Source of the DNA: a virus
Lineage: Duplodnaviria > Heunggongvirae > Uroviricota > Caudoviricetes
Virus record (IMG/VR): IMGVR_UViG_2778261389_000005
Coordinates: 1 to 35,777 of that record
Reading direction: 5' to 3' (one strand)
Length of the DNA stretch: 35,777 nt
The number at the start of each line of letters is the position of its first letter. The stretch's first letter is position 1. The notes below the pieces were generated by a model, which was given only the letters and a program-made list of their open reading frames with translations, had not been told where the DNA came from and did not search any database. The translations under genes were made by a program, and so were the position numbers. Shown piece after piece: positions 6,804 to 10,130 of the stretch.

Positions 6804-6998
6804 ATGGAAAAGTTCTACGTGGGTTACAACGATGTATGTCAGGCGGTAGGTAGAGCGACGCTGAATCTGATATCACATGGAGACGCGCCCACTACTGAGG
6901 CGATCATTTCAATGCTGGAGTCGCTGGGGGATATTGAGCAGAACGATTTTTGGCGACAGGTGTTCAGGTTTGCTGCTGAGGAAGTGCGAAAAGGGTAG
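6804..6998 (+). CDS. Hypothetical small protein, opposite strand to surrounding early genes
   Basis: 64-aa ORF; GAGGGTGGG RBS before ATG; followed by hairpin at 7011-7028. Confidence 0.45.
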   Translation: MEKFYVGYNDVCQAVGRATLNLISHGDAPTTEAIISMLESLGDIEQNDFWRQVFRFAAEEVRKG

Positions 6999-7002
6999 GC
7001 AA

Positions 7003-7028
7003 AAGAAACCCCGGCGCGGTGGCCGGGT
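7003..7028. terminator. Bidirectional rho-independent terminator
   Basis: CCCGGC-GCGGTG-GCCGGG hairpin flanked by A-run upstream and T-rich tract downstream; lies between convergent ORFs. Confidence 0.5.
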
Positions 7029-7034
7029 TGGAGA

Positions 7035-7460
7035 TTATTTTCTAGATGATGTTGGGGACCAAGGTAACGTTATAGTATCTAACACTGTGTTTTTGAACAT
7101 ATTTTCAAAAACTGTTTTTGTACATACATATACATAATTTTCAAAAAACCAAGCATTTTCATTATAAAAATCCTCAGTTACTTCTTCATCGAGGTCACAC
7201 TCAAATGTTAGTGTCAAGGTAGCCTCTGCCTTGAACAATACATCCTCACCATCATCAAAATCTTTTTTATCGCGAGGGAAACCAGTTATCGATGGCTTAA
7301 CTTCAATAAAGAGCCAATTTCCATCTTCATCTTTTTGAGGAACAACGTGATGCTCAGAAAATTTTAAGCTATATTTTCCGCCTTCAGAATTATCACTGTC
7401 GTCGATAAAAAGGGAAGAACCCTCGAGATCAAATCCCTTAAAGCGAATTTTATCAAGCAT
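7035..7460 (-). CDS. Hypothetical acidic protein, third gene of hicAB operon
   Basis: 141 aa from ATG at 7458-7460, overlapping hicB stop by 1 nt (TGATG); ORF-track version starts at TTG 7496; followed by terminator; AT-rich. Confidence 0.45.
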   Translation of the reverse strand: MLDKIRFKGFDLEGSSLFIDDSDNSEGGKYSLKFSEHHVVPQKDEDGNWLFIEVKPSITGFPRDKKDFDDGEDVLFKAEATLTLTFECDLDEEVTEDFYNENAWFFENYVYVCTKTVFENMFKNTVLDTITLPWSPTSSRK

Positions 7461-7933
7461 CAATGTGGCACTCCGTTGTCTACTGAAACTTCCCAATAGG
7501 TCTCTTCTGTACGTCTACGGGATGAGAAGAAAGTAACTTCTCTAACATCCCTCGGTTTTTCAAAGTGGTAGTGAACCTCTTTTTTCCCATTAACTGACTC
7601 ACTGACAGCCTGTTTTACATAATCGTTTAAAGTCATATTCTTAGCTTTAGCAGCTAAATATGCTTTTTTATGCAGGGATTCACCTATCCGGATGTTAAAC
7701 GAACCACTCATTGTCTTATCTGGAGATTTTCCTATCTCTTCACAAGTGGAGAGGTAATCGTCCACGGCCTCCTCAAAGGCTGCACGGAGTTCTGCAACCG
7801 TTGCACCCTCATAAGTGACGAGATCATTTATACATTCGAGTTTTCCATGCATCACCCCATCTTCAAATGAAATGCTGGAGCTACCATAGTAACCTTTGTA
7901 TTTCATCAAGTTATTCATGATCATCAATCTCAT
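7460..7933 (-). CDS. hicB: HicB-family antitoxin
   Basis: Motif MKYKGYYGS...DG..HGKLECINDLVTYEG...EL..AFEEAVDDYL..CEE.G..P.K..SG.FN.R typical of HicB; likely true start at internal Met (7918 or 7906); about 40-aa C-terminal extension. Confidence 0.8.
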   Translation of the reverse strand: MRLMIMNNLMKYKGYYGSSSISFEDGVMHGKLECINDLVTYEGATVAELRAAFEEAVDDYLSTCEEIGKSPDKTMSGSFNIRIGESLHKKAYLAAKAKNMTLNDYVKQAVSESVNGKKEVHYHFEKPRDVREVTFFSSRRRTEETYWEVSVDNGVPH

Positions 7934-8165
7934 CTAACAGCTGTTTAACTTCTTCCAAGACGTACCTTTTGAGGGTGTTTTCAGGATGAGGCTCATGAAA
8001 AATGACCAATCTATCAACACGTTGGTTGTAAAATTTACGGCCAGAACCTCGTTTAGCATTCAAAAGCTTGAAGCCATACTGGTTCATGAGAGTAACGAAC
8101 TCATCCCAAGTAAAATTTTTGGGTAAGCCGTCTAACTTTGACTTTAGCTTTTCCTTTCTTCCCAC
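7911..8165 (-). CDS. hicA: HicA-family toxin (YcfA-like fold), non-canonical
   Basis: 84 aa, GTG start; aligns to HicA pattern (GF.L...RGS..KF....V..HEPHP) but with GSGR in place of the usual GSHH; overlaps hicB. Confidence 0.7.
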   Translation of the reverse strand: MGRKEKLKSKLDGLPKNFTWDEFVTLMNQYGFKLLNAKRGSGRKFYNQRVDRLVIFHEPHPENTLKRYVLEEVKQLLDEIDDHE

Positions 8166-8192
8166 GAAGGATACATCCTCTGTTAAAGGTAG

Positions 8193-8213
8193 TGCAACTG
8201 AAATCTAGTTGCA
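8193..8213. promoter_or_regulatory. Palindrome TGCAACT-N7-AGTTGCA upstream of hicA, candidate operator
   Basis: Perfect 7-bp inverted repeat 28 nt upstream of the hicA start. Confidence 0.35.
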
Positions 8214-8325
8214 AGCTATGCTATCTATAGACAAAATGTTTCATTGTTATATCAGAAGATACCCGATCTGTTTCACCTTCAACTACTATAATTTGTTATA
8301 AGCTATCAACCGGTGGAACTGCGAA

Positions 8326-8424
8326 TTAGCCGCTGGGTGTTGCGTATCCATCGATGATAAACCATGCCATAAACCCCATAGCTACGATGAACACCAAGAT
8401 CGGAAACACTATACCAATTCTCAT
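8326..8424 (-). CDS. Small hydrophobic peptide (32 aa), possible membrane peptide
   Basis: Hand-translated MRIGIVFPILVFIVAMGFMAWFIIDGYATPSG; AGGGA RBS-like sequence upstream; single predicted transmembrane helix. Confidence 0.3.
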   Translation of the reverse strand: MRIGIVFPILVFIVAMGFMAWFIIDGYATPSG

Positions 8425-8469
8425 GATTTTATCCCTGTCTACCCATGCTTCCTGGGCACCAGCGGCTCG

Positions 8470-8862
8470 TTACTCGGCATCGCCCTTAATCCGCCGCCCC
8501 ATATATTTGGCGTACAGATCGTCGAGTTCCTTCAGGCGCAGTGATACCGCCTTAAGAACTCCACCCTGATCCTCTTCGGGGAGTTGACGGAAAAGGCGTA
8601 AAAGCTCTTGCTCATTACTTTTTAATCCATCATTGGGCCCTATATCCTGCCCCAAAACCCAGGCTAAATTCACACCAAGCGCATCAGCTAGCTTAAGTGC
8701 GGAGTTTTTCCCAATAGTTCCCCTTACAAACCAGTTGTTAACCGACTGGGATGTTACGCCACAAATTCTGGCCAGATCTGCTTTTGAGAGATGTTTACTA
8801 TTCGTGATCTCATTGAGTCGTCTGACCTGTGGGTTATCTGATTCGTGTGTATTTTTTCTCAT
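8470..8862 (-). CDS. DicA-like HTH (XRE) repressor, paralog 2
   Basis: N-terminal HTH (LSKADLARICGVTSQSVNNW) and C-terminal LRLFRQLPEEDQ...LRLKELDDLYAKYM; about half identical to the upstream gene; alternative GTG start at 8877. Confidence 0.7.
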   Translation of the reverse strand: MRKNTHESDNPQVRRLNEITNSKHLSKADLARICGVTSQSVNNWFVRGTIGKNSALKLADALGVNLAWVLGQDIGPNDGLKSNEQELLRLFRQLPEEDQGGVLKAVSLRLKELDDLYAKYMGRRIKGDAE

Positions 8863-8881
8863 GTACAAGAGTATCACTTAG

Positions 8882-9265
8882 CTAATCAGCATCGCCCCTG
8901 ATTCTGCGATTCATGTACTTGGCATATAGTTCATCGAGTTCCTTCAGACGCAGGGAGAAGATCCTTATCATATTCTGCTGTTCTTCTTCCGGTAACTGTC
9001 TGTAGAGCTCCAGAATACGTTGTTCATCAGGCTTAAGACCATCCTTCTCTCCAACATCCTCACCAAGTAGCCAGGGGACGGACACCCCTGCAGCGTCAGC
9101 AACCGCTAATGCAGAACTTTTGCTGATTCTTCCTGTTTTGAACCAACTGGAAACAGCTTGCTTACTGACGCCAGCAACCCTGGCCATCTCTGTTTTAGAG
9201 AAACCTTTCCTGTTCAGTTCTGTAAGCCTGGAAATCAGCTCATTTGTCATTGTTTTTTCGCTCAT
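8882..9265 (-). CDS. DicA-like HTH (XRE) repressor, paralog 1, probable CI analogue
   Basis: 127 aa; HTH plus LPEEEQ C-terminal module resembling DicA; divergent from cro-like gene across operator region. Confidence 0.75.
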   Translation of the reverse strand: MSEKTMTNELISRLTELNRKGFSKTEMARVAGVSKQAVSSWFKTGRISKSSALAVADAAGVSVPWLLGEDVGEKDGLKPDEQRILELYRQLPEEEQQNMIRIFSLRLKELDELYAKYMNRRIRGDAD

Positions 9266-9363: not shown

Positions 9364-9588
9364 ATGACTGGTATTGAGAAAGCTATTCAAAAGTTCGGCA
9401 CAGGTGCGGCACTCGGAAGAGCGCTTGGATTTTCAAAAATGACAATTTCCAACTGGAAAAAAACTGGCATTCCGCCCGATCACATTCTCTCTGTTTTTGA
9501 GCTTACGGGGGTCACACCGCATGAGTTGCGGCCTGACTTATATCCAAATCCAACCGATGCCTTACCAGTGCAAGAAACGAGGACGTAA
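9364..9588 (+). CDS. Cro/YdaS-like HTH regulator
   Basis: 74 aa; HTH and GVTPHELRPDLYP segment resembling Rac prophage YdaS; AGGAGG RBS. Confidence 0.7.
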   Translation: MTGIEKAIQKFGTGAALGRALGFSKMTISNWKKTGIPPDHILSVFELTGVTPHELRPDLYPNPTDALPVQETRT

Positions 9589-9590
9589 AC

Positions 9591-10130
9591 GTGCAATCAC
9601 TATCACTTCATCAAAATAGCGGATATCAACCGGCTGCGATGATAAATCGCAATCAACCTGTCTCGGTAGATAAACATGACCAGATCCGCGATGCCGTTCG
9701 TGCGTGGGCGGGTGTAGATGGTCAGGATGTCGTTTCTGCTCTGATCATCGAAGAGTACCAGGCTCAAGGGGGAGACGAGATCACTTTCCCTGATGACCTC
9801 AGCCGACAGCGTCAGAAGCTTTTCCGCTTCCTGGATAACCATTTCAACAGCGAACGGTACCGTGAGAACGTTCGCCAGCTGACTCCGGCAATCCTGGCGG
9901 TCCTGCCGATTGAATACCGCAACCGTCTGCTACCAGAAGACAACGTTATGGCCCGCCTGGCTCGGCTGGAGAAAGAAACCAGCGAAGCGAAGATTGCCGT
10001 CGCAATGGATGCGCCACGCCATCAAAAGCTGAAAGAGTTGAGCGAGGGGATCGTGGAGATGTATCGCGTTGACCCTGGGTTAACCGGTCCACTGATGGAG
10101 ATGGTGCAGATGATGCTGGGGGCTATATGA
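9591..10130 (+). CDS. YdaT-like protein (cII-position regulator/toxin-like)
   Basis: 179 aa; LTPAILAVLPIEYRNRLL resembles Rac YdaT; immediately follows the cro-like gene. Confidence 0.6.
   Translation: MQSLSLHQNSGYQPAAMINRNQPVSVDKHDQIRDAVRAWAGVDGQDVVSALIIEEYQAQGGDEITFPDDLSRQRQKLFRFLDNHFNSERYRENVRQLTPAILAVLPIEYRNRLLPEDNVMARLARLEKETSEAKIAVAMDAPRHQKLKELSEGIVEMYRVDPGLTGPLMEMVQMMLGAI

Follow-up and report, generated by a model that had tools for sequence, protein, structure and literature searches.

HicA toxins have been described as having a single conserved catalytic residue, the histidine that opens strand β2, and its mutation abolishes toxicity or RNase activity in the proteins of Burkholderia pseudomallei (His24), Yersinia pestis (His28), Streptococcus pneumoniae (His36), and Neisseria gonorrhoeae (His24) (PMC11594946, PMC6159526, PMC12297915). 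The activity of a HicA is usually judged by this single residue. HicAB is also one of the three toxin-antitoxin families known with SecB-like chaperones; the defining trait of toxin-antitoxin-chaperone (TAC) systems is such a chaperone that works on an extension at the C terminus of HigA, MqsA, or HicB, and the HicAB-SecB system of Methylomonas has been validated experimentally (PMC5105189). Here we analyzed a hicA gene and its neighbors in a 35,777-nucleotide stretch of a Caudoviricetes virus (IMG/VR record IMGVR_UViG_2778261389_000005, positions 1 to 35,777; hereafter the window). The encoded protein lacks the β2 histidine, and we consider it rather probable that it is nevertheless an active HicA toxin, in which the essential histidine has moved from β2 to His57 on β3 and which HicB keeps in check.

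The canonical HicA toxins used for comparison were those of B. pseudomallei (4C26 and 6G26), Y. pestis (HicA3, 4P78), S. pneumoniae (5YRZ), N. gonorrhoeae, and plasmid pHNSHP45. The window HicA belongs to the same Pfam family and shares with them the fold resembling a dsRBD (double-stranded RNA-binding domain), the G-S turn before β2, the P-H-P motif after β3, and the gene order hicA-hicB with a HicB of the ribbon-helix-helix (RHH) type. It differs from them in having Gly42 in place of the catalytic histidine (His24, His28, or His36) and His57 on β3 where they have Thr or Pro. It also begins with an additional helix of ~18 residues, and its β2-β3 loop has two residues more than theirs.

Identity and fold of the window HicA

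The product of hicA, translated from the minus strand of positions 7911-8165, is MGRKEKLKSKLDGLPKNFTWDEFVTLMNQYGFKLLNAKRGSGRKFYNQRVDRLVIFHEPHPENTLKRYVLEEVKQLLDEIDDHE. It matched the Pfam HicA profile PF07927 (COG1724) significantly, with 32.1 bits (cut-off 27) and E = 1.2e-07, residues 20-73 aligning to profile positions 1-52 of 58, and PF07927 was present in all listed homologues. PHROG 8887, annotated as “toxin”, matched at 2.7e-34. The AlphaFold2 (AF2) model built from the family alignment had a mean predicted local distance difference test score (pLDDT) of 93 and consisted of a helix (residues 3-12), α1 (20-29), β1 (32-35), β2 (42-47), β3 (52-57), and α2 (67-83), which is the dsRBD-like α1-β1-β2-β3-α2 fold preceded by the additional N-terminal helix of the long form. 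The four best PDB matches of this model in Foldseek were all HicA chains (5yrz_B, 6g26_E, 6g26_F, and 4p78_C), with template modeling (TM) scores of 0.64-0.74 normalized to target length and root-mean-square deviations of 3.9Å for 4p78_C and 2.1-2.4Å for the other three chains. Homology to HicA and the HicA fold were thus seen at both the profile and the structural level. Sequence searches of the PDB with the single protein or a narrow profile found no HicA; these chains were reached only with a broader profile of the family.

When 1.84 billion cluster representatives were searched exhaustively with HMMER, 824 long-HicA relatives (clusters at 50% identity, E ≤ 1e-3) were retrieved. Nearly all of them were ~85 residues long and matched from residue 1, so the N-terminal extension is common to them. 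At 90% identity, more than 5,000 long-HicA clusters came from a word-indexed search that used the family profile. The locus itself is partly known already, as the gene is annotated as HicA, and its neighbor as HicB, in public records (mEp234, HK106, and RefSeq). Some public relatives, both close and distant, carry the labels “hexulose-6-phosphate synthase” or “hexulose-6-phosphate isomerase”, for example the protein of the Rahnella aceris plasmid NC_015062.1 (104664-104903) and the relative P0294, and these labels look like a propagated misannotation of HicA-like proteins.

Absence of the β2 histidine

According to the original prediction, the segment RGSGRKF of this protein aligns with the conserved GSHH region of HicA toxins and, if that alignment is right, the catalytic histidine is absent. 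Three independent and agreeing alignments bore this out. The hmmsearch alignment of the family profile (125 members) with the PDB placed GS-[R/G] onto the GS-A of B. pseudomallei HicA (6g26/4c26), in which A is the residue of the H24A mutation, and in the same chains it also paired the PHP of the family with the PHP of B. pseudomallei HicA. The hhalign alignment with the 60-residue canonical HicA of pHNSHP45, which itself aligns confidently with the solved HicA structures, placed G40-S41-G42 onto S-S-H and PHP onto PHP. The range of the Pfam match agreed in placing Gly42 at the position of the catalytic β2 histidine (His24 of B. pseudomallei). Gly42 (codon 8040-8042) therefore stands at the start of β2 where the canonical G-S-H has its histidine, while the conserved glycine of the β1-β2 turn (the Gly22 equivalent) is retained, with G40 aligning to the G/S of G-S-H.

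The only histidines of the window HicA are H57, H60, and H83. None is found in residues 1-56, so neither the β1-β2 turn nor β2 could receive a histidine in any alignment, and a shifted alignment hiding a β2 histidine was rejected on this ground. No histidine was placed at the catalytic position by the profile alignments proposed as the check on the original prediction, and the absence of the β2 histidine is confirmed.

Reciprocal occurrence of histidine on β2 and β3

The residues around both positions are conserved in close relatives. Among 16 homologues with identities as low as 63%, G40, S41, R43, F45, and the whole H57-E58-P59-H60-P61 segment were invariant, G42 was at least 90% conserved, and K44 was nearly invariant. 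This pattern in the sequences points to purifying selection on the motif.

Histidine statistics across the family were drawn from 152 full-length representatives at 50% identity (one truncated fragment was left out); of the 824 relatives, the best 150 hits were covered. Histidine was present at 57 and absent at 42 in 136 of them, and present at 42 and absent at 57 in 14, where position 57 was A, V, Y, C, P, or T. Two representatives had histidine at both positions and none at neither. With 119 further sequences, the counts were 256 (His57 only), 14 (His42 only), 1 (both), and 0 (neither). Position 42 was Arg in 86 of the 152 representatives, and Gly, Ala, and His in 16 each. Most long HicAs have no histidine at 42, and the window HicA therefore represents the majority state. 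The correlation between histidine at 42 and histidine at 57 was -0.93 and was about zero for all other columns. By mutual information with average product correction (MI-APC), columns 42 and 57 were reciprocal top partners and their pair ranked sixth in the whole protein; the pair 44-55, which lies in the same hairpin register, was also among the top twelve. A requirement for one histidine at either 42 or 57 across the long-HicA family is thus shown statistically, and a single histidine requirement met from either strand is the most economical explanation of these sequences.

The HicAs of the His42 type did not form one clade, and their nearest neighbors were mostly of the His57 type. A neighbor-joining (NJ) tree gave ~10 parsimony changes between the two states, a figure that is indicative only, as short proteins give weak trees. 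The sole representatives with histidine at both positions (P0061 and P0105) have PHN in place of PHP after β3. These double-histidine proteins may be intermediates in the switch.

In the model, β2 (42-47) and β3 (52-57) form hairpin arms of equal length joined by a four-residue loop, which puts position 42 opposite position 57. In antiparallel sheets, residues that neighbor each other across strands face the same side. Taken with the covariation, the predicted secondary structure suggests that His57 adjoins position 42, pairing with it across the β2/β3 hairpin, and that its imidazole would lie on the same face of the sheet beside the canonical place. The family would then need one histidine at the active spot, which either strand can supply; in the window HicA it would be His57, within the motif H-[K/E/R]-P-H-P. 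We infer that His57 takes over the part played in RNA cleavage by the canonical catalytic histidine, and that the window HicA is an RNase.

The histidine of the shared PHP motif was considered as a substitute as well. An active toxin could carry out catalysis with His60 or with the basic residues Arg43 and Lys44, and His57 would then be only structural. His60 is nearly invariant (149 of the 152 representatives), its gonococcal equivalent His40 has been described as spatially close to the catalytic His24 (PMC12297915), and columns 43 and 58 also covary strongly. However, the correlation with histidine at 42 was only -0.11 for His60 as against -0.93 for His57; His60 occurs irrespective of whether 42 or 57 is the position with histidine, so the reciprocal pattern is not explained by it. 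In the gonococcal protein, H40A leaves toxicity intact while H24A abolishes it (PMC12297915), and tyrosine occupies that position in Y. pestis HicA3 (PYP) and in the PDB chain 9svk. Catalysis by His60 or by Arg43 and Lys44 is accordingly given a small share of the probability, and the PHP histidine is an unlikely substitute.

The same counts bear on a changed mechanism, in which the β2 histidine became dispensable, for instance with the protein binding RNA or the ribosome stoichiometrically and not cleaving it, or acting on another substrate. The dsRBD-like fold is an RNA-binding fold, and the long HicAs have the extra helix at residues 3-12 that the canonical ones do not, both of which would fit such a change. 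But a histidine at one or the other of two adjacent positions, with none of the 152 representatives having it at neither, is what histidine-dependent catalysis predicts and not what its loss predicts, and the protein keeps the G-S turn on which the canonical site relies for support. We regard a changed mechanism as improbable. “Altered chemistry”, one of the two outcomes first proposed for this protein, is only partly upheld: the data favor chemistry of the same histidine-based type, and what appears to have changed is the location of the histidine, now at the facing β3 position (His57).

Plasmid relatives and maintenance of the toxin gene

A tblastn search of a plasmid collection found relatives in 622 records, mostly ~33-kb IncX4 and ~60-kb IncI2 plasmids of E. 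coli or Salmonella. Their 82-residue HicA was 35% identical to the window HicA over query residues 1-79. The IncX4 sequence, QGSRVRF...ILMHRPHPE, is of the His57 type, with hicA and hicB overlapping by 4 nt. An overlapping hicAB subfamily (“HicA-O-B”) has been described on IncX4 and IncI2 mcr-1 plasmids, and the HicA of p14EC007a (IncX4) is reported to be toxic in E. coli K-12 and to be fully neutralized by its HicB (PMC11878559). The other subfamily in that study, that of pHNSHP45, has a canonical S-S-H HicA. The IncX4/IncI2 HicA shares with the window HicA the long-HicA subfamily, the motif type (GSR...MHRPHP), and a hicB overlapping hicA. The IncX4 system differs in being bipartite, with a 115-residue HicB that has no long C-terminal tail and with no SecB-like third gene, in being borne by a plasmid and not by a prophage, and in having at position 42 the family consensus Arg instead of Gly.

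The gene context was examined in 73 related viral loci, which were found with HEPHP as the search pattern and were used for gene context only, not for the motif statistics. The cognate hicB was directly downstream of hicA in all 73, as it is in the window (Table 1). A homologue of the third gene, hicC, followed hicB in 37 of the 73, essentially all of them with a HicA at least ~49% identical to that of the window, which means that toxins of the His57 type occur in both two-gene and three-gene systems.

These results bear on the other proposed outcome, that the protein is a degenerate toxin, that is, an inactive pseudo-toxin kept only as a partner or co-repressor of HicB, or nearing loss. The canonical catalytic histidine is indeed absent, and the protein is captured by no NCBIfam model and matched by none of PADLOC. 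Degeneration is nonetheless difficult to reconcile with a motif that is invariant in homologues down to 63% identity, with a non-histidine β2 position that is the majority state of a large conserved subfamily, extending over the 824 clusters at 50% and more than 5,000 at 90% identity, or with the lack of any listed member devoid of both His42 and His57. The antitoxin gene is always kept alongside hicA, and the plasmid homologue of the His57 type has been reported as toxic (PMC11878559). The claim of a degenerate toxin was thus not borne out, and we consider it very improbable. By analogy with the reported homologue and from the conservation of the genes, the window HicA would be toxic and would be neutralized by the HicB encoded directly downstream.

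Several points weigh against an active toxin with a relocated histidine. The profile-to-PDB alignments that locate Gly42 are individually weak (E ~0.07; hhalign probability 39%), though mutually agreeing. Proteins with histidine at neither position may exist deeper in the family than the representatives analyzed. The exclusivity of His42 and His57 (Fisher p = 7e-17) is uncorrected for phylogeny, and the covariation statistics likewise take no account of it, the trees of 84-residue proteins being poorly resolved. The pairing of 42 with 57 was deduced from the strand lengths (42-47 and 52-57) and the covariation rather than from a measured distance. The HicA of p14EC007a is taken to be the IncX4 sequence read here on the basis of plasmid type and gene overlap. 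In addition, we found no biochemical or genetic test of His57 for the window HicA or for any relative. On balance, there is a somewhat better than even chance that the whole HicA subfamily, comprising thousands of proteins including those of IncX4 mcr-1 plasmids and prophage TAC cassettes, uses a catalytic histidine on β3, with several independent switches and rare double-histidine intermediates.

HicB, HicC, and the probable toxin-antitoxin-chaperone character of the locus

In addition to the toxin, the window encodes an antitoxin and a third protein that together resemble a TAC system. HicB has a tail of ~45 residues past the Pfam HicB/RHH region; the profile of PHROG 9151 (HicB-like antitoxin) ends at residue 124 of the 157-residue open reading frame (ORF), leaving 33 residues beyond it. 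The bipartite IncX4 HicB, unlike that of the window, ends at the domain. This C-terminal tail is a candidate chaperone-addiction (ChAD) segment. ChAD sequences show no conservation between TAC systems (PMC5105189).

HicC had no match in Pfam, PADLOC, or the PDB sequences, and its RefSeq label is “hypothetical”, so its assignment as SecB-like rests on the predicted fold. The AF2 model (pLDDT 79) matched best the M. tuberculosis SecB-like TAC chaperone Rv1957 (5mtw; TM 0.67-0.74) in Foldseek, followed by SecB of E. coli and H. influenzae (1qyn/1ozb/1fx3). In one 2025 record (PV340539.1), the roles of toxin, antitoxin, and chaperone are already assigned to the three genes under the annotations HicA, HicB, and “HicC chaperone”.

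With a SecB-like fold for HicC in the HicAB operon, hicABC would be a TAC cassette. It shares with M. tuberculosis HigB1-HigA1-SecB(TA) and Methylomonas methanica HicA-HicB-SecB(TA) the operon of a toxin, a C-terminally extended antitoxin, and a SecB-like chaperone (PMC5105189, PMC6377645), and differs from these systems in that no similarity of HicC to SecB can be detected by sequence. Published primers for the two HicA genes used experimentally by Bordes et al. 2016, Metme_2813 (Methylomonas) and TDE0482 (Treponema), were scanned against genome contigs and gave no match. The fold and the architecture suggest that HicB depends on HicC; the antitoxin with its long C-terminal tail would probably be stabilized by the SecB-like protein, giving a tripartite module.

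Operon signals and prophage setting

The features of the locus are listed in Table 1. The terminator-like hairpin corresponds in position to Timm annotated in mEp234 (EF120460). On the minus strand upstream of hicA, no promoter with a sigma-70 consensus was called; the perfect inverted repeat there is a candidate HicB operator and promoter region.

Table 1. Features of the hicABC locus in the window
Feature	Position	Strand	Evidence or remark
Cassette (terminator, hicC, hicB, hicA, small YoaK-like ORF)	6997..8509		99.7% identical to mEp234 (blastn)
Intrinsic-terminator-like hairpin and T run	7010..7027	minus	closes the hicABC operon
hicC, 141-residue SecB-like chaperone (predicted)	7035..7460	minus	AF2 fold, Foldseek; 1-nt overlap with the end of hicB
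hicB, antitoxin (RHH type)	7460..7906 (longest ORF from 7933)	minus	PF05534 1.5e-18, PHROG 9151
hicA, 84-residue toxin, long-HicA subfamily	7911..8165	minus	ORF, GTG start, Pfam, PHROG, AF2, Foldseek
Codons of H57-E58-P59-H60-P61	7983..7997	minus	H57 = 7995-7997, end of β3; H60 = histidine of PHP shared with canonical HicA
Codons of R39-G40-S41-G42-R43-K44-F45	8031..8051	minus	sequence; G40-S41-G42 = 8040-8048
Perfect inverted repeat TGCAACT-N7-AGTTGCA	8193..8213		28-48 nt upstream of the hicA start
Small ORF, 32 codons, YoaK-family small membrane protein	8326-8424	minus	RefSeq; between repressor and hicA, inside the cassette
YdaS-like gene	9364-9588	plus	PF15943; divergent from the repressors
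YdaT-like gene	9591-10130	plus	PF06254; divergent from the repressors

Over the 901 bp around hicA, identity was 100% with the immunity regions of three lambdoid phages (mEp234, HK106, and mEp506) and 99.9-100% with six chromosomal prophages of E. coli. The flanks of 6997-8509 differ, being of the Rac-like repressor/YdaS/YdaT kind here and of the lambda-like cI/cro/N kind in mEp234, while the segment itself is shared; hicABC thus appears to be a mobile cassette downstream of a repressor gene, transferred as one piece among prophage immunity regions. On its right, the cassette ends within the 3' end of the repressor gene.

Two tandem repressor-like helix-turn-helix genes (Phage_CI_repr/HTH_3) were found at 8470-8877 and 8882-9265, both on the minus strand, and are 55% identical to each other over the whole length. 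A related prophage of E. coli WEM25 has a single repressor gene at this position. The pair may have arisen by tandem duplication, or the immunity region may be a hybrid. YdaS and YdaT beside hicABC form an immunity layout of the Rac-prophage type.

In mEp234, cI and the Timm terminator lie on either side of the hicABC cassette, a position that implies expression in the lysogen. In lambda, the interval from cI to Timm is occupied by rexA-rexB, which belong to the cI-rex operon. The cassette shares with rexAB this position in the genome and the lysogen expression that it implies, and differs in its unrelated proteins and its other mechanism, that of a toxin, an antitoxin, and a chaperone. In the window, the cassette lies downstream of repressor genes and would probably be expressed in the lysogen too, where it might serve as an addiction or abortive-infection module. 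CmdTAC and HigBAC have been described as antiphage defenses, and by likeness to such TAC systems hicABC could plausibly act in abortive infection or prophage addiction.

Implications for the HicA family

Our literature search found no paper describing this hicABC cassette and no report of a HicA without the histidine, and Gerdes 2024 is silent on the catalytic residues. Relative to the literature found, the apparent novelty read from these sequences is a large HicA subfamily without the “essential” β2 histidine and with a reciprocal histidine on β3.

If the proposed role of His57 is true, the rule that a HicA without the β2 histidine is inactive would be wrong, and many annotated HicAs without the histidine of G-S-H would be active, among them a variant found widely on colistin-resistance plasmids. 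For this group, His57 on β3 and not β2 would then be the site to target in mutagenesis controls, in constructs of inactive toxin, and in structure-based inhibitor design. The family would also offer a clean natural case of an active-site residue hopping across a β-hairpin in a minimal single-residue RNase. The hicA of the window belongs to a probably functional three-gene cassette, which is a swappable module of the immunity regions of lambdoid and Rac-like prophages.

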